Virus record (IMG/VR): IMGVR_UViG_2728369593_000008
Location: 1 to 30,585 of that record
Origin: a virus
Lineage: Duplodnaviria > Heunggongvirae > Uroviricota > Caudoviricetes
Length of the DNA: 30,585 nt
Strand: one strand, 5' to 3'
Position 1 is the stretch's first letter; each line of letters opens with the position of its first letter. Both the position numbers and the translations under genes were made by a program. Below the pieces are notes generated by a model. The model saw nothing but the letters and a program-made list of their open reading frames with translations. It was not told where the DNA came from and did not search any database. Shown one piece after another: positions 797 to 11,205 of this stretch.

Positions 797-1792
797 GTGA
801 CCGTGAGAGCACTACTGACCCCTGAAATTGCCCCACGTATGGGGATCGTATTGTTCAGACCAGGTTCAGAGCTGATGCCCCTGTTTATGCAGGGACGTGT
901 CCTGCTGGAGCCTGAGCCGGAACATTATTCATCTTTCGCCAGTGGTGCCGTTCCCGCGGCATCACAACCGCTGGCGGATGATCCTGCCGTTCGGGCCGTG
1001 TTCCGCAATGAGGCAGTGATTCGTCGTGCGGGTGGCGTGGAATGTCTTGAAAGCTGGTTACTTCGTGAAAAAGGCTGCCAGTGGCCTCATTCCGACTGGC
1101 ACAGCGAGAACATGACCACAATGCGACACGCGCCGGGCGCAATCCGTCTGTGCTGGCACTGCGATAACCAGCTGCGCGATCAGTTCACGGAACGGCTGGA
1201 ATCAATGGCAACGGATAACTGTACCCGCTGGGTGTTGTCTGTTGTGCGTCGGGATCTCGGTTTTGATGACAGTCACGTTGTGACAATGCCGGAACTGTGC
1301 TGGTGGCTGATTCGTAATGACCTGGCGGATGCCTTACCGGAAAGTGCAGCCCGTAAGGCACTGAGATTACCAAAGCCTGTTGTGCCGTCTGTCACCCGGG
1401 AAAGTGACCTTGTGCCTTCGGTTCCTGCCACCAGCATCATCCAGGATAAAGCGAAAAAGGTGCTGGCGCTGAAAGTGGATCCGGAGTCGCCGGAGTCTTT
1501 TATGTTACGCCCAAAACGTCGCCGCTGGGTTAATGAAAAGTACACGCGCTGGGTTAAGACACAGCCGTGTGCATGTTGTGGAAAGCCCGCTGATGATCCC
1601 CACCACCTGATAGGTCACGGTCAGGGTGGAATGGGAACAAAAGCGCATGACCTTTTTGTGTTGCCTTTGTGCAGAAAGCATCACGACGAGCTGCATGCGG
1701 ATACCGTGGCATTTGAAGATAAGTATGGCTCCCAGCTGGAGCTGATATTTCGTTTTATCGATCGTGCGCTGGCAATTGGCGTACTGGCGTAA
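797..1792 (+). CDS. DUF968-family phage protein with C-terminal Cys/His zinc-finger (HNH-like) motif
   Basis: 331-aa ORF; C-terminus PCACCGKPADDPHHLIGHGQGGMGTKAHDLFVLPLCRKHHDELH matches the conserved DUF968 block of lambdoid nin-region proteins. Start is uncertain (GTG at 797 or ATG at 839). Confidence 0.6.
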   Translation: MTVRALLTPEIAPRMGIVLFRPGSELMPLFMQGRVLLEPEPEHYSSFASGAVPAASQPLADDPAVRAVFRNEAVIRRAGGVECLESWLLREKGCQWPHSDWHSENMTTMRHAPGAIRLCWHCDNQLRDQFTERLESMATDNCTRWVLSVVRRDLGFDDSHVVTMPELCWWLIRNDLADALPESAARKALRLPKPVVPSVTRESDLVPSVPATSIIQDKAKKVLALKVDPESPESFMLRPKRRRWVNEKYTRWVKTQPCACCGKPADDPHHLIGHGQGGMGTKAHDLFVLPLCRKHHDELHADTVAFEDKYGSQLELIFRFIDRALAIGVLA

Positions 1793-1805
1793 GTGGAGAA
1801 CGAGC

Positions 1806-2558
1806 ATGAACCTTGAAGCCTTACCAAAATATTACTCCCCGAAATCTCCAAAACTGAGCGATGACGCACCGGCGACAGGCTCTGGTGGTTTAACGATTAC
1901 GGATGTGATGGCTGCGCAGGGGATGGTGCAGTCGAAAGCACCACTGGGTTTTGCCTTATTCCTGGCAAAAGTTGGTGTTCAGGATCCTCAGTTTGCGATT
2001 GAAGGTCTGCTCAATTACGCGATGGCACTGGATAACCCGACATTGAATAAATTGAGTGAAGAAACCCGGTTACAGATCATTCCTTACCTTGTGAATTTTG
2101 CCTTTGCTGATTATTCCAGGTCTGCGGCAAGTAAGGCTCGCTGTGAGCATTGTGCTGGTACTGGATTTCATAATGTATTGCGCGAAGTGGTGAAACACTC
2201 CAGAAGCGGGGAATCTGTTATCAAGGAAGAGTGGGTAAAGGAACTGTGTCAGCATTGCCATGGTAAGGGAGAAGTCAGCACAGCGTGCAGAGGGTGTAAG
2301 GGTAAAGGTATTGTCCTGGATGAACAAAGAACCCGGCTTCATGGCACGCCTGTTTATAAGACTTGTGGGCGTTGCAATGGAAACCGGTTTAGCCGTTTAC
2401 CGACTACACTGGCACGACGTCATGTCCAGAAGCTGGTTCCAGACCTGACTGATTATCAGTGGTACAAAGGATATGCAGACGTAATTGATAAACTAGTAAC
2501 AAAGTGCTGGCAGGAAGAAGCATATGCTGAAACACAATTGAGAAAGGTGACGAGATAA
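1806..2558 (+). CDS. Late-gene antitermination protein Q (long, Qin-prophage QuuQ-like type)
   Basis: Several CxxC pairs (CEHCAGTG, CQHCHGKG, CRGCKGKG, CGRCNG) typical of the phage Q family; position just upstream of the lysis cassette. ATG at 1806 is preceded by GGAG; the longer ORF begins at 1764. Confidence 0.7.
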   Translation: MNLEALPKYYSPKSPKLSDDAPATGSGGLTITDVMAAQGMVQSKAPLGFALFLAKVGVQDPQFAIEGLLNYAMALDNPTLNKLSEETRLQIIPYLVNFAFADYSRSAASKARCEHCAGTGFHNVLREVVKHSRSGESVIKEEWVKELCQHCHGKGEVSTACRGCKGKGIVLDEQRTRLHGTPVYKTCGRCNGNRFSRLPTTLARRHVQKLVPDLTDYQWYKGYADVIDKLVTKCWQEEAYAETQLRKVTR

Positions 2559-3126
2559 GTGATTTTCGCCGAAGATAGCGACATGAAGCTTGCATTTTTC
2601 AAAAAATATGGATAAGATTTTCTCAACGATGGGCTTTGTATGTCTGCCGTTGAGAATCTTCAAGAACCCGCCATCAAGTAGGTATTTTGTTATCCAAATA
2701 TCAGTTCTGAATAGTCTTAGTAGCTTCTTGATAAACATAAAAAAGTACTTGCTTTGAATGGCCGCCTTTTAGACAGGGCAGAGAGTACGATTGGTTGAAA
2801 AAAGCATAGTTCTTGGCGGTAGGTTTTATTTTAGTCTCTCATCTATGTATCTAGGGAAGTATGTGATTACCTTCAGGAATTATATCCTGTGTTTCATATG
2901 ATTACATGGGAGCAAGGGACGCCAACTTTATAACAATTCTTATGCCCAGCCACTATATATAGATAAAAAAAATCCGCATCATCCCGTATATTGTTTTTGA
3001 TTTCTTTTTGCTATATATGTTGTGTTTTTTATGCCTTTATTGCATATGTGATTAATGTGCTTGTTGTTATATTCAATACGATGCCAAGGGATTTGGGACG
3101 TGTATATCCAATAAATTGGCAGATTT
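2559..3126 (+). promoter_or_regulatory. ~570-bp AT-rich non-coding region downstream of Q; expected site of the late promoter/qut element and/or a promoter for the cargo cassette
   Basis: No convincing ORF; candidate -35/-10 pair TTGCAT-17 bp-TAAGAT near 2591-2619; inverted repeat CTCAACG/CGTTGAG at 2622-2654; A/T tracts and TATATA runs throughout. Confidence 0.3.
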
Positions 3127-3153
3127 TTGTTAATTACTTGGGTAGCGTATTGT

Positions 3154-3594
3154 ATGACTAAAAATGCACAGCAGGTTCTTGAAGACTCTGCCCAACAGAT
3201 TTTTCCCGATTATTTTCCTGCAGATGTTCCTCCAAAAGAGTCCTTGGATGCTGAAGGGGTTTTTTATCGCTTAGCCAGAAATAATCCACCTGGGAAAGCT
3301 TGTTTTTTAAACATGAAAGAAGAAAACCCAAAAAGAATGAAAAAGTTCCAAGGGTTACAATTGAAATGCTGCTATGGTGTTTCTATGTTCATGGACGAAA
3401 CATCACTGGTAAATGTATTTAATAAATTTCCTGAAGGAATAGGTGAAAGGTTTATTGCTAAAGGCGAGTTGAATCCACAGGATGGAAGAATGCTAAAAAC
3501 AGGAGCTCCTGATTCGACTCATTTTACCATTTGGCTTTGTAAAGATGCTCGAGTTCATGAAAAATTCACCTGTATAAGAGAGGTGGTTAGATGA
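3154..3594 (+). CDS. Hypothetical protein, cargo gene A of the Q-to-holin cassette (no recognisable family)
   Basis: ORF 3127..3594 with first ATG at 3154; visibly AT-rich and rich in Lys/Asn/Phe; stop overlaps the start of the next gene (ATGA at 3591-3594). Confidence 0.55.
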   Translation: MTKNAQQVLEDSAQQIFPDYFPADVPPKESLDAEGVFYRLARNNPPGKACFLNMKEENPKRMKKFQGLQLKCCYGVSMFMDETSLVNVFNKFPEGIGERFIAKGELNPQDGRMLKTGAPDSTHFTIWLCKDARVHEKFTCIREVVR

Positions 3595-4880
3595 GCAATA
3601 TTTTTTTGGAAGATAGTGTGTTCGGCACATTATATATGCAAAAAATTTATGAGTTCTTCGAAGAGCCAAAACTTTTCTCTGTGTCTAATGAAATAAATAG
3701 CATGTTTGTTGTCTATTGGATTGGCGACGAAGAAGATTATGATAAATGGATTATCATACCGATTTCAAAAGATAGGTTGGAGCACTTCGAGCGTAAAAGA
3801 ATTGATATTAGAAGTGTTTTAGTGTATCAAGAACAAAAGCTTTGCTATCAGTTTAATATTTACTATGAAGATAATCATGTTGATGAAATAAAAATAAATG
3901 TTTCTGAGTTAAATGAGAAGATAAAAATTCCAGAACCTAACTTATATATTAGTAGTGTTCTTCCTGTATTACCTAATGGTAAAATTGGAAAGGAGGTGGA
4001 ATTCTCTACGCATGAGATTCATGTGGAGAAAACAGCAACTTCTGTGGAACCCTTGGTTTTAAAAGGCGTCTCGAAGCTTTTTGAGTGTTTTAATGATTTC
4101 TATTCATCAATATTAGCTGCATTTGATGAAAAAGATGTAATGAGTCCAGTATCTGGACGTCCTGGTTCATTTGTTCTTTCATTCAAGGCAGATAAAATGC
4201 AGCAAATTGAACCATTGCTGAAAAAACTAAATGAGCTGATTCTATCAAGAAAAGATATTATTGGTTTTGTTAAACAGAATAATATCGATGTTCAGATGTT
4301 ATCTGCTTTATTTGAAAGTGTGATAGAGACAAGTTCATGTTTTGAACTAAAAAGTAATGTGACTGATGATGTTATTCTTAGAGTCAGAAAAACTGATGCT
4401 GAGTTCTATTCTGGCACATTGATTAAAATGGCTACTCAAGTTGTTAGTAGTTATCAGGTACCGCAGGCTAACCTAATTGAACAAGTGTTTAAGATAGTTG
4501 AATTAAAATGGCAAGAGAAGCATCTGAACCTGATTAGTACTGGTCTGGATAATCGACATATATTGTATTATATTCATGCGGCCAAAATACTTGGGTTACT
4601 AAATAGTAATGGTTCTGTTTCAGCTCTTGGTCAGCAATTGGTTGAATCTGACTATGATAAGAGACTAAGAATCGCTGCACGCGGTTTTGAAACAAGTCAT
4701 TGCGGGTGGGCGTGGATTACCTGGAGTCAAGCTAAAAATCTTTCTGAGCTCGATCCACTTACAGCTGAACGATTTTTGCAAGATAGATGTATATCTCTCA
4801 GCTCCAAAACAATAAAGAGAAGGGCTTCTACTTTAAGGCAGTGGTGTGAAAAATTGCAACCTGCTTATCAGGAGCTCTGA
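3591..4880 (+). CDS. Hypothetical 429-aa protein, cargo gene B (no recognisable family)
   Basis: Long uninterrupted AT-rich ORF; GAGGTGG RBS about 6 nt upstream of the ATG; translationally coupled to gene A; followed by two hairpins. Confidence 0.65.
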   Translation: MSNIFLEDSVFGTLYMQKIYEFFEEPKLFSVSNEINSMFVVYWIGDEEDYDKWIIIPISKDRLEHFERKRIDIRSVLVYQEQKLCYQFNIYYEDNHVDEIKINVSELNEKIKIPEPNLYISSVLPVLPNGKIGKEVEFSTHEIHVEKTATSVEPLVLKGVSKLFECFNDFYSSILAAFDEKDVMSPVSGRPGSFVLSFKADKMQQIEPLLKKLNELILSRKDIIGFVKQNNIDVQMLSALFESVIETSSCFELKSNVTDDVILRVRKTDAEFYSGTLIKMATQVVSSYQVPQANLIEQVFKIVELKWQEKHLNLISTGLDNRHILYYIHAAKILGLLNSNGSVSALGQQLVESDYDKRLRIAARGFETSHCGWAWITWSQAKNLSELDPLTAERFLQDRCISLSSKTIKRRASTLRQWCEKLQPAYQEL

Positions 4881-4953
4881 AGGATATGATGATTATCTTC
4901 TTTTTGGAAGAAGATAATGTAAATTTGATTTTATTATAACACTCTACCTAAAT

Positions 4954-4980
4954 AAAAGGCTCGCACAGGCGAGCCTTTTC
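4954..4980 (+). terminator. Rho-independent terminator after the cargo cassette (A-tract upstream, so possibly bidirectional)
   Basis: AAAAGGCTCGC-ACAG-GCGAGCCTTTTCC: 7-bp GC-rich stem, 4-nt loop, T-run. A second AT-rich hairpin (11-bp stem ATTATCTTCTT/AAGAAGATAAT) lies at 4892-4918. Confidence 0.6.
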
Positions 4981-5060
4981 CATGTCTCAATCTGATTCAA
5001 CTATTTTATTTAACTTTTTATATGTCGCCTGCATAACTTACGAGGTGAGAGACGATATTC

Positions 5061-5396
5061 ATGCCCCATAATCCAAACACATGGCCGGATTGGCTGGAGA
5101 TTTTCCAGAGCTGGTGGCGTGGAGATACGCCTCTTGGCGCAGTGATTATGTCGATCGTTATGGCTGGTTTGCGTATTGCTTATTTTGGTGGTGGTGGTGG
5201 CTGGAAACGAAAAACGCTCGAGATTTTGCTCTGTGGTGCTCTGACGCTGACTTTTGCATCCGCTCTTGAGTATGTCGGATGGCCTAAATCGCTTTCTGTT
5301 GCCATTGGTGGCGGCGTTGGGCTGATCGGTGTCGATGCTATTCGTGGGGCTGCAATGCGAGTAATCGGTAACAAATTTGGTAGCTCGAAGGAGTAA
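5061..5396 (+). CDS. Putative holin
   Basis: 111-aa protein with hydrophobic helices and a charged C-terminus, immediately upstream of the endolysin; GAGGTGAG RBS. Not lambda S-like in sequence. Confidence 0.6.
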   Translation: MPHNPNTWPDWLEIFQSWWRGDTPLGAVIMSIVMAGLRIAYFGGGGGWKRKTLEILLCGALTLTFASALEYVGWPKSLSVAIGGGVGLIGVDAIRGAAMRVIGNKFGSSKE

Positions 5397-5399
5397 TTT

Positions 5400-5876
5400 A
5401 TGCAGGAACTAAATCCCCAGCGTAAAGCTTTCCTAGATATGGTGGCCTGGTCAGAAGGAACGGATAACGGGCGACAACCGACACGTAACCACGGTTATGA
5501 TGTTATTGTCGGTGGTGAACTGTTTACTGATTACTCCGATCACCCTCGCAAACTTGTCACGCTAAACCCAAAACTCAAATCAACAGCAGCCGGACGTTAC
5601 CAGCTTCTTTCCCGTTGGTGGGATTCCTATCGTAAGCAGCTTGGCCTGAAAGACTTCTCTCCGAAAAGCCAAGACGCTGTGGCATTGCAGCAGATTAAAG
5701 AGCGTGGCGCTTTACCGATGATTGATCGCGGTGATATCCGTCAGGCTATCGATCGTTGCAGCAATATCTGGGCGTCGTTACCTGGTGCAGGTTATGGTCA
5801 GTATGAACATAAAATCAGTGACCTGATTTCCCGGTTTAAAGAGGCTGGTGGGGTGGTAAATGAAGTTGAGCTATAA
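5400..5876 (+). CDS. R: Endolysin, lambda R-type lytic transglycosylase
   Basis: Translation is close to the lambda R sequence as I recall it (NQRKAFLDM.AWSEGTDNGRQ.TRNHGYDVIVGGELFTDYSDHPRKLVTLNPKLKST.AGRYQLLSRWWD.YRKQLGLKDFSPKSQDAVALQQIKERGALPMIDRGDIRQAIDRCSNIWASLPGAGYGQ); GGAG RBS. Confidence 0.9.
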   Translation: MQELNPQRKAFLDMVAWSEGTDNGRQPTRNHGYDVIVGGELFTDYSDHPRKLVTLNPKLKSTAAGRYQLLSRWWDSYRKQLGLKDFSPKSQDAVALQQIKERGALPMIDRGDIRQAIDRCSNIWASLPGAGYGQYEHKISDLISRFKEAGGVVNEVEL

Positions 5877-6252
5877 GCTGGTTATCGCTGGTTTCTTCGT
5901 TACTGTCATTGGTTCTTTCATCTGGTCGGCCAACCACTACTACAGCAAATATCAGTACGAAAAGAAACGTGCTGATGAGGCTGTACGAAATGCTGAATCA
6001 GCAACTGCCATTACCAATAACGTCCTGCAATCACTGCAAATCGTCAATACAGTTCTGGAGGCTAACCAGCATGCAAAAGAGCAGATCGCACTGGAGTCAC
6101 AGAGAACCCAGGAAGATATCAAAGTGGCTGTTGCGGATGATGATTGTGCTTCACGTCCTGTTCCTGCTGCCGCTGCTGACCGGTTGCGGAAGTACGCGGA
6201 CAGTTTACGTGAACACTCCGGCGGTACCACTGCCAGCCAGCCTGACTTCTGA
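5860..6252 (+). CDS. Rz: Rz-type i-spanin
   Basis: N-terminal transmembrane anchor followed by a charged, helical periplasmic domain; start overlaps the endolysin 3' end. Confidence 0.75.
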   Translation: MKLSYKLVIAGFFVTVIGSFIWSANHYYSKYQYEKKRADEAVRNAESATAITNNVLQSLQIVNTVLEANQHAKEQIALESQRTQEDIKVAVADDDCASRPVPAAAADRLRKYADSLREHSGGTTASQPDF

Positions 6253-6388
6253 AACACCGATTCCAGTTGTACCTAGTCCACTGACATATGGTGCTAGCTT
6301 GGAACTGAATGCGAGTTTGTTATCTGCATTAGCGCAATGCAATAGAGATAAAAAGGATATTCTAAAAATAGGATATCAAAATGAATAA
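6137..6388 (+). CDS. Rz1: Rz1-type o-spanin lipoprotein (overlapped architecture)
   Basis: Begins in the +1 frame inside Rz with MMIVLHVLFLLPLLTGC (lipobox LLTGC); proline-rich mature part; extends past the Rz stop. Confidence 0.7.
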   Translation: MMIVLHVLFLLPLLTGCGSTRTVYVNTPAVPLPASLTSETPIPVVPSPLTYGASLELNASLLSALAQCNRDKKDILKIGYQNE

Positions 6389-6454
6389 ATATTTTCCGGA
6401 AAATGATTATAACTGTGCTATAAATATAATCACCAAATAATATAAAGGTGAGTT

Positions 6455-6964
6455 ATGGAAAGGTTTATAAAATCAATTGAATCTTCAATTGAAAGTGAGA
6501 ATTGGTTAGCGGCATTGTTTATGGCTCTTGCTATGCCTGATATTTGCAGGAGCGTTGAACGTCCCAAAATAGGTAAGGGTGAAACAGGGAAATGGTATAA
6601 AGATTGGGTTTCTCGTTATCTTGAAAATAAATATACATCCGGTACACATGAACAGTGTCGATTTTATGCGGATGATTTTTGGCTGTATCGTTGTTCTTGT
6701 TTACATGCTGGACAGGATCCAGAGAACAGGAAAAGAATGATGCAGTTTAATTTTACACCACCACCTAGGCAAAATTGCCAAGTGCATTTAAATCACTTAA
6801 ATGGCAAACTTCAGTTGCAAATAGATGTGTTTTGTCGAGACATGATTGAGGCAGTCAATCAATGGCGTACTGAGGTCGAGGATACGCCAGAAATTAAGGC
6901 TCGTATGGATTCTCTGATAAATATATCATTAGCATCTTTTGGAACATTCATTTCATTTGGTTAA
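6455..6964 (+). CDS. Hypothetical 169-aa protein, AT-rich moron between lysis and packaging genes (no recognisable family)
   Basis: Isolated ORF with AAAGGTGAG RBS, a candidate extended -10 (TGCTATAAA near 6416-6424) upstream and a hairpin downstream; AT-rich compared with flanking genes. Confidence 0.6.
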   Translation: MERFIKSIESSIESENWLAALFMALAMPDICRSVERPKIGKGETGKWYKDWVSRYLENKYTSGTHEQCRFYADDFWLYRCSCLHAGQDPENRKRMMQFNFTPPPRQNCQVHLNHLNGKLQLQIDVFCRDMIEAVNQWRTEVEDTPEIKARMDSLINISLASFGTFISFG

Positions 6965-6971
6965 ATATATT

Positions 6972-7015
6972 AATGAAGTGAATTTTACAGTGGGTACTAA
7001 AAGGTTCACTTCATT
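6972..7015 (+). terminator. Hairpin / putative terminator after the 6455..6964 moron
   Basis: 11-bp inverted repeat AATGAAGTGAA (6972-6982) / TTCACTTCATT (7005-7015); the loop is long, so stability is uncertain. Confidence 0.35.
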
Positions 7016-7069
7016 TAATGATTTCCCTAAAACAAATTTTTTTAGAGGAAACTATTTAGGACATTAATA

Positions 7070-7420
7070 ATGCCCCCTCGAACCCCAAAAGCCTGCCGCG
7101 TTCGCGGTTGCCGCCATACCACTACTGATCCGTCAGGCTACTGCGAAAGCCACAAAAGCGAAGGCTGGAAGCAATACAAGCCAGGTCAGTCCCGTCATCA
7201 GCGCGGTTATGGTTCGAAGTGGGACGGTATCCGCGTGCGCGTCCTGAAGCGTGACAAAGGTTTATGTCAGTTATGTCTGCGTGCTGGTGTGGTGCGTGAG
7301 GCGAAAACTGTTGACCACATCATCCCTAAAGCGCATGGCGGCACTGATGCCGACTGTAATCTGCAGAGTCTGTGCTGGCCGTGTCATAAGGCGAAGACGG
7401 CCCGTGAACGGTTGAAGTGA
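7070..7420 (+). CDS. HNH endonuclease (packaging-associated, HK97 gp74-like)
   Basis: Cys-rich N-terminus (CRVRGCRH...CESH) and HNH core (VDHIIPKAHGG...NLQSLCWPCHKAKT); sits directly upstream of the small terminase, as in HK97-like phages. Confidence 0.85.
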   Translation: MPPRTPKACRVRGCRHTTTDPSGYCESHKSEGWKQYKPGQSRHQRGYGSKWDGIRVRVLKRDKGLCQLCLRAGVVREAKTVDHIIPKAHGGTDADCNLQSLCWPCHKAKTARERLK

Positions 7421-7545
7421 TAATGATTCTCAACTGCCTGAGGGGAGGGGCGGGTCAAATCCCTGCGGCCTGACGTCTTCCGGACTGCCCGCCCCATCGT
7501 TTTTTTATACCCGCAAAAAATGAAATTTAACCAGGAGTGCCGCAT

Positions 7546-8040
7546 ATGGCTGGAACGGCGGGGCGTTCCGGGCGTCGCCCCAAGCCAACGGCGCGCAAGG
7601 CGCTGGCCGGAAACCCCGGCAAGCGAGCCCTGAACAAAGATGAACCTGTTTTTACGCCCATCAAAGGTGTTGAGCCACCGGAGTGGTTCGCAGAAGAAGA
7701 TCTCCATCTCGCCACGATCATGTGGCAACTGACAACCAAAGAACTCTGCGGTCAGGGCCTGCTGTGCGTGACTGACCTCGCGGTACTTGAGCGGTGGTGC
7801 GTGGCCTACGAGTTCTGGCGACGTGCCGTGAAAAATATTGCCAGACAGGGCAACACCATCACCGGTGCAATGGGCGGCAGGGTCAAAAACCCGGAGCTGA
7901 CCGCCAAGAAAGAACAGGAGTCCGAGATGAGCAGCACGGGGGCAATGCTCGGACTCGACCCCAGCAGCCGCCAGCGTCTGATAGGCCTGGCGGGGCAGAA
8001 GAAAGCCACTAACCCGTTTCTGAAAATCATCGAATCATGA
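7546..8040 (+). CDS. Terminase small subunit (P27 / HK97 gp1 family)
   Basis: Arg/Lys-rich N-terminus ([14 protein letters not shown]...); AGGAG RBS upstream of ATG 7546 (the ORF track begins at GTG 7537); stop overlaps the large-terminase start. Confidence 0.8.
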
Positions 8041-9770
8041 GCCGGAAATCTTACCCCAACGTAAATGCTGCCAATCAGTATGCCCGTGATGTCGTGCGGG
8101 GAAAGATTGTGGCCTGCCAGTTTGTGATTCAGGCCTGCCAGCGCCATCTTGATGACCTGATGGCGGAAAAAAGTAAGTCGTTTCGTTACCGCTTCGACAA
8201 GGACCTGGCTGAACGGGCCGCCAAATTTATTCAGCTGTTGCCGCACACCAAGGGTGAGTGGGCATTCAAAAGGATGCCCATCACGCTGGAGCCGTGGCAG
8301 CTCTTTGTGATCTGCTGCGCGTTTGGCTGGGTCAATAAAGGCTCCCGGCTGCGCCGCTTCCGTGAGGTGTATACCGAAATCCCCCGTAAGAACGGCAAAT
8401 CGGCAATCTCTGCCGGTGTCGCCCTGTATTGTTTTGCCTGTGATAACGAGTTTGGCGCGGAAGTGTATTCCGGTGCCACGACAGAGAAACAGGCGTGGGA
8501 AGTCTTTCGCCCGGCGCGACTGATGTGTAAACGCACACCCATGCTGACGGAAGCGTTCGGGATTGAGGTTAACGCCTCAAACATGAACCGTCCGGAGGAT
8601 GGCGCGCGGTTTGAACCGCTGATCGGCAACCCCGGTGATGGATCATCACCCCACTGTGCGGTGGTGGATGAATATCACGAGCACGCCACAGATGCGCTTT
8701 ACACCACGATGCTTACCGGGATGGGGGCGCGACGTCAGCCACTGATGTGGGCCATCACTACCGCCGGGTACAACATTGAGGGGCCGTGCTACGACAAACG
8801 GCGGGAAGTCATCGAGATGCTCAACGGCTCGGTACCCAACGATGAACTGTTCGGGATCATCTATACCGTTGACGAAGGTGACGACTGGACCGACCCGCAG
8901 GTGCTGGAAAAAGCCAATCCAAATATTGGCGTGTCGGTTTATCGCGAATTTTTGTTAAGTCAGCAGCAGCGTGCGAAAAATAACGCCCGTCTGGCAAACG
9001 TCTTTAAAACAAAACACCTCAATATCTGGGTGTCGGCGCGTTCGGCGTATTTCAACCTGGTGAGCTGGCAGAGCTGCGAGGATAAATCACTGACCCTTGA
9101 GCAATTCGAGGGGCAGCCGTGCATTCTGGCCTTTGACCTGGCGCGTAAACTGGATATGAACAGCATGGCGCGACTTTATACCCGCGAGATTGACGGTAAA
9201 ACGCATTACTACAGTGTGGCCCCGCGTTTCTGGGTACCGTATGACACGGTGTACAGCGTCGAGAAAAATGAAGATCGACGGACAGCCGAACGCTTTCAGA
9301 AATGGGTGGAAATGGGCGTCCTGACCGTTACCGATGGTGCAGAAGTGGATTATCGCTACATCCTCGAAGAGGCCAAAGCGGCGAACAAAATCAGCCCGGT
9401 CAGCGAGTCACCAATCGACCCCTTCGGGGCGACCGGGCTGTCACATGACCTTGCTGATGAAGACCTGAACCCCATCACTATCATCCAGAACTACACCAAC
9501 ATGTCCGACCCGATGAAAGAGCTGGAAGCAGCAATTGAATCGGGACGCTTTCATCATGACGGCAATCCCATCATGACCTGGTGTATCGGCAACGTGGTCG
9601 GCAAAAACATGCCGGGTAACGATGATGTGGTGAAACCCGTCAAAGAGCAGGCGGAAAACAAAATCGACGGTGCAGTTGCGCTGATTATGGCGGTTGGCAG
9701 AGCCATGCTGTACGAGAAAGAAGACACGCTGTCTGACCACATTGAGTCCTACGGGATCCGCTCGCTTTAA
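8037..9770 (+). CDS. Terminase large subunit (HK97-like)
   Basis: 577-aa protein with ATPase-type motifs ([19 protein letters not shown]) and a C-terminal nuclease-like region; start overlaps the small-terminase stop. Confidence 0.9.
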
Positions 9771-9781
9771 CTGAGGTAATT

Positions 9782-9964
9782 ATGATCATGCTGATTCTCG
9801 CGCCTCTGGTGGGCGTGCTGGGGGCGCTTTTGCTGGCGTATGGTGCCTGGCTGATTTATCCCCCGGCGGGGTTTGTTGTTGCCGGGGCGTTGTGCCTGTT
9901 CTGGTCGTGGCTGGTGGCGCGATATCTCGACCGTACACAGACGTCTGTCGGCGGAGGTAAATAG
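9782..9964 (+). CDS. Small membrane protein (two predicted transmembrane helices)
   Basis: 60-aa hydrophobic ORF with GAGGT RBS; fits exactly between the terminase stop and portal start, overlapping the portal start by 1 nt. Confidence 0.45.
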
Positions 9965-11205
9965 TGTTCTTTTCGGGATTATTTCAACGAAAAAGTGACG
10001 CACCGGTGACCACGCCAGCAGAGCTGGCGGAGGCTATCGGGCTGTCATACGACACCTATACCGGAAAGCAGATCAGCAGCCAGAGGGCCATGCGACTGAC
10101 GGCGGTTTTTTCCTGCGTCAGGGTGCTGGCAGAGTCGGTCGGGATGTTGCCCTGCAACCTGTATCACCTGAACGGCAGCCTGAAGCAGAGAGCCACCGGC
10201 GAACGTCTGCATAAGCTGATCTCCACGCATCCCAATGGCTATATGACGCCGCAGGAGTTCTGGGAGCTGGTGGTCACCTGTCTGTGCCTGCGGGGAAACT
10301 TTTACGCCTACAAAGTGAAAGCATTTGGCGAAGTGGCTGAACTGCTGCCCGTCGATCCCGGCTGTGTGGTACCGAAGCTTAACAGTAGCTGGGAGCCGGT
10401 CTATCAGGTCACATTCCCGGATGGCTCCACGGATGTACTGAGCCAGGAGGATATCTGGCATGTGCGCACGCTGACGCTGGACGGACTGGTGGGGCTGAAT
10501 CCCGTCGCCTATGCCCGCGAGGCAATATCGCTGGCAGCTGCGACCGAAGAGCACGGGGCCAGACTGTTCAGCAATGGCGCGGTGACGTCGGGTGTGTTGC
10601 GTACAGAGCAGACGCTGTCAGATCAGGCTTATGAGCGCCTGAAGAAAGATTTTGAGGAGCGTCACACCGGGCTTGGCAATGCTCACCGCCCGATGATCCT
10701 TGAGATGGGGCTGGACTGGAAGTCGATGGCGCTGAACGCCGAGGACAGCCAGTTCCTGGAAACCCGCAAGTTTCAGCTTGAAGAAATCTGTCGTCTGTTC
10801 CGGGTGCCGTTGCACATGGTGCAGAACACCGATCGCGCCACCTTCAACAATATCGAAGAGCTGGGGCTCGGATTTATCAACTATTCACTGGTGCCGTATC
10901 TGACCCGCATCGAACAGCGGATCAACACCGGACTGGTACGAAAAAGTAAGCAGGGCGTTTATTACGCCAAATTTAACACCGGGGCGTTACTGCGCGGGGA
11001 TATGAAGTCCCGTTTTGAAGCCTACGCCACCGGGATCAACTGGGGAATTTACTCTCCCAATGACTGCCGCGACCTGGAAGATATGAATCCGCGTCCCGGT
11101 GGTGATGTCTATCTCACACCGATGAACATGACCACGAAACCCTCCGATGGCAGTAAAGCCGGTAAGCAGAAGGATAACGCCAATGCAGACGAAACAACGT
11201 CTTGA
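9964..11205 (+). CDS. Portal protein (HK97 family)
   Basis: 413 aa; position after the large terminase; GTG start preceded by GGAGG; conserved portal-like blocks (e.g. FRVPLHMV, GDVYLTPMN). Confidence 0.85.
   Translation: MFFSGLFQRKSDAPVTTPAELAEAIGLSYDTYTGKQISSQRAMRLTAVFSCVRVLAESVGMLPCNLYHLNGSLKQRATGERLHKLISTHPNGYMTPQEFWELVVTCLCLRGNFYAYKVKAFGEVAELLPVDPGCVVPKLNSSWEPVYQVTFPDGSTDVLSQEDIWHVRTLTLDGLVGLNPVAYAREAISLAAATEEHGARLFSNGAVTSGVLRTEQTLSDQAYERLKKDFEERHTGLGNAHRPMILEMGLDWKSMALNAEDSQFLETRKFQLEEICRLFRVPLHMVQNTDRATFNNIEELGLGFINYSLVPYLTRIEQRINTGLVRKSKQGVYYAKFNTGALLRGDMKSRFEAYATGINWGIYSPNDCRDLEDMNPRPGGDVYLTPMNMTTKPSDGSKAGKQKDNANADETTS

Follow-up and report, generated by a model that had tools for sequence, protein, structure and literature searches.

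An AT-rich gene pair in the Q-to-holin slot of an Escherichia coli prophage as a distant relative of the PD-T4-10 anti-phage system

The interval between the Q antiterminator gene and the lysis genes carries late-region cargo in lambdoid prophages, for example stx in Stx phages. The 30,585-nucleotide stretch of prophage DNA analysed here (the window) holds in this slot, where Shiga toxin sits elsewhere, an AT-rich cassette of two genes, designated A and B. Which kind of cargo this pair represents, and what it may do for the prophage or its host, is the question addressed below. The features on which the answer draws are collected in Table 1.

Table 1. Coordinates of the cassette, its parts and the borders of its slot within the window
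Feature	Position	Strand	Remarks
Q antiterminator (left slot border)	1764..2558	+	PF03589, E 6.7e-54; phrog_127
Post-Q region common to related prophages	2559..2690	+	87% identical to L002 up to 2690
Variable AT-rich cargo block, acquired unit, 2.35 kb	2691..5040	+	Homology borders; 34.9% G+C
Cassette-proximal leader, travels with A	3041..3134	+	72% identity to L033/L034 upstream region
Gene A, 146 aa	3154..3594	+	PD-T4-10A antitoxin homologue; predicted ADP-ribosyltransferase-like fold
Gene B, 429 aa	3591..4880	+	DUF6575 + DUF7226; Pfam PF20215, PF23871; AlphaFold2
B N-terminal domain (aa 1-115)	3591..3935	+	Common with PD-T4-10B; always alongside A
B middle domain (aa 140-283)	4008..4439	+	Family-specific, no recognised fold
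B C-terminal module (aa 286-427)	4446..4871	+	Predicted winged helix + helical bundle (DUF7226)
AT-rich hairpin 1, 12-bp stem	4892..4918	+	dG -11.3 kcal/mol, z -3.3
G+C-rich hairpin 2, inside cargo block	4954..4983 (also 4954..4979)	+	dG -17.6 kcal/mol, z -4.8
Lambda-type holin (right slot border)	5061..5396	+	PF05106, E 2.2e-27

An acquired block between Q and holin

Profile matches on both sides confirmed the placement between Q and holin that a preliminary description had proposed. Homology to related prophages ends at 2690 and restarts at 5041, which sets the borders of the cargo block. The AT-richness earlier judged by eye is borne out by windowed composition: G+C is 34.9% in the block and 50.9% in the window as a whole, and of all 2350-bp segments of the 30.6 kb, the one starting at 2601 is lowest in G+C. 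GC3 amounts to 0.29 in A and 0.28 in B, compared with 0.66 in the large terminase. In related prophages the slot contains a DNA methyltransferase and a small ORF instead, and over 2,600 E. coli genomes have other cargo there. The block itself was found in 3 of 5,426 complete E. coli genomes, and its 463-bp non-coding upstream part occurs only in these three. Slot comparison, the different cargo there and this rarity support the view, already put forward for the locus, that the variable Q-to-holin slot received the cassette by horizontal transfer, as a module. Prophage slots holding the pair include, besides this one, a post-lysis/pre-terminase position and a P2-like position near gpA. The pair also occurs on plasmids, in integrase-adjacent islets and in a three-gene chromosomal islet, and tblastn with either protein returned none of the 50,697 deposited phage genomes. 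A Stx-like or other known cargo was rejected, as Pfam, PHROG and NCBIfam give A and B only DUFs.

The non-coding DNA upstream of A, previously put at about 570 bp, measures 595 bp (2559..3153), and its first ~130 bp are a conserved post-Q region outside the insert. Within this region, positions 2570-2637 are also conserved in L033, L034 and L047. It contains a 9-bp hairpin (2620-2628/2648-2656) and a weak candidate late promoter, read by eye as TTGCAT (2590-2595), 17 nt and TAAGAT (2613-2618), which falls under the threshold of the promoter scan. The cassette-proximal leader is shared with another prophage (L033/L034), whose A gene is 59% identical at the protein level; it includes a perfectly conserved block, CTTGTTGTTATATT, and a candidate extended -10 promoter, TGtTATATT, at 3065-3073. 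In consensus scans for sigma-70 promoters and terminators, promoter-like sites were scarcer than in shuffled controls and neither downstream hairpin was detected, and the promoters are therefore kept as candidates. The two hairpins noticed earlier behind the cassette are supported by their folding energies and z-scores (Table 1). Hairpin 2, with an A-run before it and a T-run after it, looks like a bidirectional intrinsic terminator. Searches of the 595-bp leader and of the DNA between the hairpins for tRNA genes and known RNAs yielded none, with sub-threshold Rfam noise over the hairpins.

The two proteins and their kinship with PD-T4-10

The cassette does consist of two overlapping genes of the lengths first described. 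The ORF of A has possible starts at 3127 (TTG) and 3154 (ATG) and ends at 3594, and the ATG is backed by RefSeq and by 146-aa homologues. At the junction, GAGGTGgttagATGA, the stop codon of A and the start codon of B overlap as ATGA (3591-3594), with a Shine-Dalgarno-like GAGGTG 5 nt ahead of the B start. Of 84 related loci encoding a B homologue, 83 have an A homologue directly 5' of it, the sole unpaired locus being a truncated contig, and the adjacency is kept in Acidobacteria, in which a helicase is fused to the DUF6575 N-terminal domain. Furthermore, dN/dS is ~0.1-0.18 (computable in four of eight comparisons, with dS saturated in all). Purifying selection acts on both genes, and pairing and dN/dS together show that the pair is conserved beyond chance.

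Contrary to the first impression that neither protein belongs to a recognisable family, B is composed of DUF6575 and DUF7226: PF20215 (DUF6575) matches residues 3-223 (E 7.8e-37) and PF23871 scores 26.9 bits. An AlphaFold2 model of B has a pLDDT of 88.6. The PADLOC model PD-T4-10_B (PDLC04024), 353 positions long, matches residues 23-120 through its positions 26-120 (E 9.8e-8), and eight of ten diverse members of the ~430-aa B family match it, all by the N-terminal part only. A homologue search with the N-terminal-domain profile gave short fragments only; 2,375 representative proteins match the B profile at E <= 1e-3. The middle domain has no significant PDB match in Foldseek, and G192 and S193 alone are widely conserved in it. 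The C-terminal module is the best-conserved part of the wider family, with Arg, Tyr and Trp residues that are invariant, and its winged helix is predicted from the model to bind nucleic acid. Catalytic residues, an endonuclease motif or a nuclease fold were not detected in B, and neither A nor B could be linked at sequence level to solved structures.

An R-x6-H spacing in B had been likened, weakly, to a HEPN motif. The spacing is present (R322..H329), but it lies on the recognition helix of the winged helix and is therefore not HEPN; the family motif around R322 is R-Q-x-x-Y-Y, position 323 (His here) is Gln in 87% of the wider family, and H329 stays below 70% identity across it. HEPN models did not match B. 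That B is a HEPN-type RNase toxin was accordingly rejected as next to impossible.

Protein A matches PD-T4-10_A (PDLC04023) over nearly the whole model, with residues 24-144 on positions 24-147 of 148 (E 2.9e-10), and A homologues from every lineage tested match the same model. Its family has no Pfam match at E up to 10 (16 diverse members) and no PDB sequence match. Fold searches with the predicted structure give consistent matches to the ADP-ribosyltransferase (ART) fold, and A is thus predicted to be a small ART-like protein. Its conserved residues are R39, G75-x-S77 and H123-x-T125-x-W127; R39 and S77 are 98% conserved and H123 is invariant, whereas E82 and D120 are not universal. Set against the ART triad (R/H - S/Y - E(D/Q)), with residues assigned to triad positions from secondary structure, A has no conserved acidic residue at the third position, and the invariant His-x-Thr-x-Trp appears to take the place of the catalytic Glu.

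PD-T4-10 is a validated abortive-infection toxin-antitoxin system of E. coli ECOR65 (Vassallo 2022, Nat Microbiol). It protects against T-even phages; PD-T4-10B is toxic and is neutralised by PD-T4-10A, which cannot be deleted, deletion of B abolishes resistance to T4, and DUF6575 was listed among new defence domains (Vassallo 2022). A 2024 survey still gives the system as of 'unknown function'. The canonical system was not found among phages and plasmids by tblastn with A. On the strength of the profile matches, the PD-T4-10 pair is one part of a far more extensive family of modular make-up, and the cassette is a distant relative with a different, predicted DNA-binding C-terminal part. The homology of B covers about 100 N-terminal residues rather than most of PD-T4-10B. 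Because the likeness is limited to the N-terminal domain, toxicity and defence are not simply transferable to the cassette, and because B has another module in its C-terminal two-thirds, it may lack the part that makes PD-T4-10B toxic. The earlier guess of an anti-phage abortive-infection or toxin pair thus fits the homology, as both proteins match PADLOC PD-T4-10, with the reservation that B does so by one domain. Coverage-based defence callers probably miss the cassette.

A proposed anti-phage role and its alternatives

At about even odds (roughly 0.5), the cassette would be a horizontally acquired prophage anti-phage module of the PD-T4-10 superfamily, working as toxin-antitoxin-like abortive infection; given its distant kinship with the laboratory-proven PD-T4-10, it would most likely protect the lysogen from other phages. 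B would be the effector, presumably toxic, with its N-terminal DUF6575 domain serving as docking or control domain for A, and its middle domain and C-terminal winged helix acting on nucleic acid, most likely DNA. In the lysogen, transcription would probably start at the pair's own promoter just upstream of A, and A would hold B inactive by binding its N-terminal domain or else by modifying it. A second, high-level transcription of A and B would probably come with the Q-dependent late transcript. An incoming lytic phage, T-even-like by analogy, may remove or override A, upon which B would act, harming the cell or the invading phage, and the infection would abort.

Several observations were counted for this explanation: both PADLOC matches in the right gene order, the PD-T4-10 phenotype, the 83/84 pairing, the A-model matches, dN/dS and the prophage cargo slots, together with AT-richness, rarity, the conserved leader, the hairpins, the winged helix and the ART-fold matches. 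Counted against it were the N-terminal-only match of B, the lack of catalytic residues or a nuclease fold, the weak promoter matches, and the methyltransferase present in many relatives, a restriction-like logic that a simple toxin-antitoxin pair does not explain.

This last point concerns environmental relatives, many of which have a conserved N6-adenine DNA methyltransferase as third gene beside A-B; by tblastn, such an enzyme is absent from the window and from the 26.8-kb L001 prophage stretch. Methyltransferases of several families adjoin A-B or proteins with the C-terminal module of B. PF01555 enzymes occur in Vibrio-like loci and beside P0194, P0161, P0171 and P0186, Dam (PF05869) in Psychromonas and an MmeI-like enzyme in Acidobacteria, and restriction-type genes (methyltransferase, helicase, T5orf172) accompany distant relatives. 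Among themselves the linked PF01555 enzymes share 64-74% identity, compared with 34-61% for the C-terminal modules of their partners. In a reverse test, 97 methyltransferase loci with full flanks were binned by similarity rank, and A-B was adjacent in 12/20, 6/20, 2/20, 0/20 and 0/17. The 28 A-B-linked loci (29 B-like proteins in 21 clusters below 70% identity) have two gene orders, 17 co-directional and 11 convergent, and the 3' ends overlap in most of the convergent pairs listed. The linked enzyme is a beta-class DPPY methyltransferase, kin of M.MboIIA, CcrM and DpnA. A methyltransferase adjacency upstream in Klebsiella was not counted as independent evidence because a methyltransferase is the usual slot occupant there. 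Small partner genes in other architectures (L087, L088, L092, L093) are not A homologues and fall into no Pfam family.

Such linkage would be expected if the pair were not an abortive toxin-antitoxin but a restriction-like system that discriminates by methylation. The winged helix of B would read a normally N6-adenine-methylated site, B would attack or block unmethylated incoming DNA, and A would be its partner for safety or regulation; the two-gene form of enterobacteria would then have lost the methyltransferase and use host or prophage methylation, or A alone. The range of adjoining methyltransferase families, the identity of the linked enzymes relative to that of their partners, the association of A-B with the top-ranked enzymes, the 3' overlaps, seen in many Type II systems, and the DPPY class of the enzyme argue for this possibility. 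The missing methyltransferase in the window and L001, the missing endonuclease fold or motif in B and the possibly coincidental Klebsiella case argue against it, as does the fact that PD-T4-10 works with two genes, without a methyltransferase, by abortive infection (Vassallo 2022). It is considered unlikely. At similarly low odds, A-B may be a stripped-down form of a widespread three-gene DNA-surveillance system that combines a beta-class N6-adenine methyltransferase with an ART-fold partner and a DUF6575/DUF7226 effector. In that arrangement, the DUF7226 winged helix would read the methylation state of a specific DNA site, and the ART-fold protein would exert enzymatic control over the effector, ADP-ribosylation and sensing of NAD+/ADP-ribose being examples. 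If true, this would be an undescribed system, part restriction-modification and part enzyme-antitoxin (type VII-like) toxin-antitoxin, whose N-terminal control domain and small partners could be swapped.

T4 Alt and Mod enzymes have the ART fold, and the predicted ART-like fold of A could likewise belong to an accessory module that the phage expresses late for host takeover or counter-defence; A would then modify a protein of the host or of a rival, and B would be a DNA-binding regulator during lytic growth. The placement of the pair, with the Q-dependent late promoter region before it and the lysis genes behind, suits such a role, and so does the frequent neighbourhood of phage methyltransferases that protect phage DNA. 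An accessory of this kind is hard to reconcile with the empty search of deposited phage genomes, the occurrence of the pair outside prophages, its own conserved leader and terminator-like hairpin, and the homology to a host-protective system, and it is regarded as very improbable. Somewhat less far-fetched, yet still improbable, is a selfish addiction module that stabilises the prophage or its own cargo block by post-segregational killing and has no anti-phage role. Its toxin-antitoxin-like layout with overlapping genes, its travel on mobile elements (prophages, plasmids, integrase-adjacent islets) and its homology to a pair whose small protein is undeletable (Vassallo 2022) are consistent with addiction. 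The only tested relative, however, protects against T-even phages (Vassallo 2022), the pair recurs in prophage cargo slots, and distant relatives are linked to methyltransferase, helicase and T5orf172 genes.

Comparison with known systems

PD-T4-10 is a validated E. coli defence system whose mechanism is still obscure, and the cassette widens its family. Both consist of two overlapping ORFs with the smaller in front, and both were found on mobile DNA of E. coli; the A model is covered almost completely by A, and B, which contains DUF6575, aligns with the B model through its N-terminal domain. In contrast to PD-T4-10B, B has 429 aa against a 353-position model, with its middle domain and winged-helix/DUF7226 module in place of the C-terminal two-thirds. 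The cassette is an example of a defence-type pair likely overlooked by coverage-based annotation tools, and it offers three leads: an 'antitoxin' with a predicted ADP-ribosyltransferase-like fold and a conserved Arg/Ser/His set, a conserved core of B predicted to be a winged-helix nucleic-acid reader and not an obvious enzyme, and the association of many relatives with a single conserved DNA adenine methyltransferase, suggesting DNA as the target.

In type VII toxin-antitoxin systems, an enzyme antitoxin chemically modifies the toxin, as in MntA/HepT. As putative neutralising partner, A likewise has a predicted enzyme-like fold instead of a fold made for simple binding or for DNA binding. Catalysis by A and modification of B are hypothetical; the literature searched contained no ART-fold antitoxin. 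Compared with the ART-fold toxins RES/ParT/MbcT, Rhs TreX/TreTu and DarT, and with KptA/Tpt1, A has no sequence-profile similarity, and in the tested relative PD-T4-10 it is the neutralising partner, not the toxin. As in Type II restriction-modification, a DPPY methyltransferase makes up a tight three-gene unit with the pair in many relatives, often in convergent orientation with 3' overlap, and the large protein has a winged helix resembling a sequence reader. Unlike those systems, the cassette in the window has no methyltransferase, B has no recognisable nuclease domain and an extra small ART-like partner is obligatory.

The cassette also shares with lambdoid 'morons' a variable Q-to-lysis slot, foreign composition, a terminator-like hairpin of its own and, as a candidate, a promoter, and it is swapped for other cargo in sister prophages. 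Relative to Stx phages it has neither tRNA genes nor Stx similarity, in agreement with the earlier remark that the proteins do not resemble Stx A/B, and its cargo is a defence-type gene pair.

The acquired unit between Q and the holin

Genes A and B, encoding proteins of 146 and 429 aa, lie between the Q antiterminator and a lambda-type holin, which is followed by lysozyme and Rz genes. The reading frame of A spans 155 codons from a TTG at 3127, and the in-frame ATG at 3154 is the likely start, since it is used by RefSeq and most homologues have 146 aa. As read from the junction sequence, GAGGTGgttagATGA, the A stop codon is overlapped by the B start codon, and a Shine-Dalgarno-like sequence for B lies within the 3' end of A.

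Homology to the sister prophage of E. coli 442/2 stops at 2690 and picks up again at 5041, which delimits the cargo block. Its G+C content is 34.9%, against 50.9% for the whole window, and no other stretch of 2.35 kb in the 30.6 kb has a lower value; GC3 falls to 0.29 in A and 0.28 in B but reaches 0.66 in the large terminase gene. This composition supports a foreign origin. The AT-rich insert noticed by eye in the preliminary description was thus confirmed, and it is absent from the sister prophage, where a 67-aa ORF and a 350-aa PF01555 DNA methyltransferase (3292-4874 of that locus) fill the slot in place of A-B. Going by the matches listed, the same two genes usually occupy the slot in related prophages, including those of most of the remaining ~2,680 E. 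coli genomes with a match. In Klebsiella prophages A-B is inserted downstream of the slot methyltransferase without replacing it, and in one further locus (L050) B comes first and the enzyme follows it. The 2.8-kb query (window 2400-5200) matches 2,682 of 5,426 complete E. coli genomes, nearly all through the Q and holin flanks, and the cassette itself is present in only three. The E. coli strain 998 record is identical over this query and is annotated as a prophage whose regulation is lambdoid, whose head is of the HK97 type and whose tail is contractile.

Features of the window and of protein B
Feature	Position	Strand	Remarks
Q antiterminator	1764..2558	+	PF03589; left of cassette
Promoter-like pair TTGCAT-17-TAAGAT	in 2559-2690	+	weak; not listed by consensus scan
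Inverted repeat	2620-2656		perfect, 9 bp
Cargo block	2691..5040
A	3154..3594	+	146 aa; likely start
B	3591..4880	+	429-codon frame
Hairpin 1	4892-4918	+	z -3.3 vs shuffled controls
Hairpin 2	4954-4979	+	z -4.8 vs shuffled controls; A-run before, T-run after
Lambda-type holin	5061..5396	+	PF05106; right of cassette
169-aa gene	6455..6964	+	phrog_18591 only (unknown function)
HNH endonuclease gene	7070-7420		immediately upstream of small and large terminase genes
B, N-terminal domain	~residues 1-115		beta-rich; structure model
B, middle domain	~residues 140-283		alpha/beta; structure model
B, C-terminal module	~residues 286-427		helical; structure model

The first ~130 bp 3' of Q (2559-2690) belong to the phage backbone and are likely the late-promoter region, kept as a candidate only because the consensus scan did not list the promoter-like pair. 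Two bases past its candidate -10 begins the inverted repeat (TTCTCAACG / CGTTGAGAA, 19-nt loop), which is kept in Klebsiella prophages (L005, L049) and may be part of a Q-utilisation or early-terminator region. The 463-bp non-coding part of the cargo was seen only together with the cassette. Its ~95 bp nearest to A are 72% conserved in another prophage whose A protein is only 59% identical, and contain a perfectly kept CTTGTTGTTATATT that reads as an extended -10 element, so a candidate promoter of A-B's own, active in the lysogen, is plausible. Both hairpins described earlier downstream of B are present and fold better than shuffled controls, the second resembling a bidirectional intrinsic terminator. 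No tRNA gene or known RNA family was found in the scanned non-coding parts (leader and hairpin region).

A second AT-rich island (6251-7000; G+C 0.375, GC3 0.29) immediately follows the Rz/Rz1 lysis genes and is itself followed by the HNH and terminase genes. Its 169-aa product has no Pfam, PADLOC or NCBIfam match; the gene occurs in 19 of the 5,426 E. coli genomes, and the otherwise near-identical strain 998 prophage carries a different 184-aa gene at this place. As the same post-lysis slot holds A-B in other prophages, the gene is a candidate second cargo or defence gene. The adjoining HNH gene next to the terminases is ordinary, being the usual HK97-like packaging-module layout.

Protein families, pairing and modularity

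Both proteins match PADLOC models of PD-T4-10, a two-gene abortive-infection toxin-antitoxin system, in line with the earlier guess of a defence or toxin/effector pair, B doing so only N-terminally. A matches PD-T4-10_A at E 2.9e-10 (model positions 24-147 of 148), with no Pfam, PHROG or NCBIfam family match. Across 54 unique A sequences, acidobacterial ones included, the near-invariant residues are R39 in the first core strand, G75-x-S77 in the second, G104, G111, T116, H123-x-T125-x-W127 and F138, whereas some members lack E82, D120 or the cysteines. A looks like R-S-E type ADP-ribosyltransferases (ARTs) in its Arg and Ser, with His at the place of the catalytic Glu. Since these triad places were assigned from secondary-structure order and no sequence profile links A to any ART family, its predicted fold is called only ART-like.

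B contains DUF6575 (residues 3-223, E 8e-37) and DUF7226 (residues 319-420; 26.9 bits, just under the cutoff of 27), and matches PD-T4-10_B at E 9.8e-8 over only model positions 26-120 of 353. Eight of ten diverse ~430-aa family members also match that model, all N-terminally only. The structure model (pLDDT 88.6) has three parts, and the best-conserved positions among 148 family members (P291 Q292 A293, R322, Y326 Y327, W375, F395, T407, R410 R411, W418) all fall in the C-terminal module, a pattern read as a nucleic-acid-binding rather than catalytic signature. The R-x6-H spacing once thought weakly reminiscent of HEPN is R322..H329, on the winged-helix helix 321-333; as conservation across the wider family does not extend to H329, and 87% of members have Gln in place of H323, a HEPN identity was rejected and is given practically no probability.

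Homologues form 63 clusters for B (27-100% identity; Enterobacterales and one Vibrio) and 26 for A. An exhaustive search with the B profile yielded 2,375 representative proteins (threshold E <= 1e-3), of which some 70 show the complete ~430-aa architecture. Of the loci gathered from reference genomes, IMG/VR viral contigs and public assemblies, 84 encode a B homologue, and in 83 of these B is directly preceded by an A homologue, the single exception being a contig that ends inside B. Judging from substitution rates, A and B are both under purifying selection, with dN of 0.18-0.29 against orthologues at 59-74% protein identity and dN/dS of about 0.1-0.18 (computable in four of eight comparisons; dS saturated). 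The pair recurs at three prophage positions (Q-to-holin, between the lysis genes and the small terminase, and close to gpA in P2-like elements), on two plasmids and beside integrases; searches of 50,697 deposited phage genomes turned up neither protein.

The DUF6575 N-terminal domain is the part common to PD-T4-10B and is always accompanied by A. Acidobacteria have the domain fused to a DEAD/ResIII helicase instead, still with an A homologue in front of it. The B middle and C-terminal module also occur behind other N-terminal regions, one a pentapeptide repeat, where the small upstream partners are not A homologues. The simplest reading is that A and the DUF6575 domain form a control pair and what follows is a swappable effector.

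Several variants were observed besides. In three acidobacterial genome bins (L022, L023, L025; about 3800-10600), four genes form an operon: they encode a 924-aa MmeI-like methyltransferase, a 131-aa A homologue, the 809-aa DUF6575-helicase fusion and a 442-aa T5orf172/MUG113 protein. This operon looks like a larger defence system around A and the N-terminal domain. The pentapeptide-repeat protein (659 aa; L088, L089, L090; about 4469-11342 in L088) is preceded and overlapped by a 179-aa gene of unknown family, and a PF01555 methyltransferase and an HsdR-like helicase of 1,131 aa (DUF4145, ResIII, SWI2_SNF2, EcoEI_R_C) come after it, the locus adjoining an integrase and an Abi_2 gene. Other members have a tandem double DUF6575 domain (P0210, P0142) or stand alone as N-terminal-domain (100-200 aa) or C-terminal-module (140-190 aa) proteins.

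Methyltransferase linkage and interpretation

A PF01555 methyltransferase of 237 aa lies about 46-54 bp upstream of A in loci of Vibrio, Photobacterium and Rheinheimera and in a genome bin from Bacteriovoracaceae; in Psychromonas a Dam-family enzyme takes this place. Four proteins with the B C-terminal module behind other N-terminal regions are each beside a PF01555 enzyme, one co-directional (P0194) and three convergent with overlapping 3' ends (P0161, P0171, P0186); one of these four loci is a three-gene islet amid housekeeping genes. The linked methyltransferases have DPPY and FxGxG motifs in beta-class order, are related to M.MboIIA, CcrM and DpnA, and are 64-74% mutually identical, against 34-61% for the partner C-terminal modules. 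Conversely, 160 loci of this methyltransferase family were collected from metagenomes and viral contigs. In the 97 with at least 1.5 kb on both flanks, an adjacent B-like gene was found, by similarity rank to the query profile, in 12/20, 6/20, 2/20, 0/20 and 0/17, and A was also present in 19 of the 20 loci with such a gene. The 29 B-like proteins encoded in the full set of 160 loci represent 21 clusters with less than 70% identity, and linked loci are co-directional in 17 cases and convergent in 11. A neighbour kept through such gene-order changes argues for a functional three-gene unit of methyltransferase, A and B. The Klebsiella arrangement in the Q-to-holin slot is weaker evidence for the linkage, because its 349-aa enzyme is the usual slot occupant anyway. 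The unit, with a ~220-250-aa DPPY beta-class enzyme, an A homologue and a ~425-aa DUF6575/DUF7226 protein, recurs widely in metagenome and IMG/VR loci (L100-L121, L158, L170, L181-L195, L223, L258; also L006, L018-L021), often with overlapping 3' ends in the convergent order.

Altogether, we put at about one in two the chance that the cassette is a defence module of the PD-T4-10 superfamily, a toxin-antitoxin-like abortive system. A would restrain B through the shared N-terminal domain, and the middle and winged-helix part of B would be the effector, acting on DNA. Of this, homology, pairing, selection, mobile context and folds are shown by the analysis; toxicity, trigger, target and promoter we infer. 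Its main rival, a restriction-like mechanism that discriminates by methylation, draws on the methyltransferase linkage in relatives and is appreciably less probable, because no homologue of the linked enzyme exists in the cassette or its 26.8-kb prophage neighbourhood, B lacks any nuclease signature and PD-T4-10 behaves as a two-gene abortive system. That the pair is a purely selfish addiction module seems improbable, and a late-lytic takeover or counter-defence function slightly more so.

Comparison with PD-T4-10

In the library searched, no paper dealt with DUF7226, the Vassallo paper and its preprint were the sole mentions of DUF6575, and neither the three-gene methyltransferase form nor an ART-fold antitoxin was found described; absence there does not prove that no description exists. 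PD-T4-10 comes from E. coli ECOR65, where its two ORFs overlap. B is toxic and neutralised by A, A could not be deleted, and deletion of B removes T4 resistance; protection works through abortive infection and is strong against T-even phages, and neither protein had a predicted function (Vassallo et al., 2022). A 2024 survey still gives the function as unknown. The present cassette shares the A component and the control domain with PD-T4-10, but its B lacks full-length homology to PD-T4-10B, a defining feature, and it is therefore not a strict member of that system.
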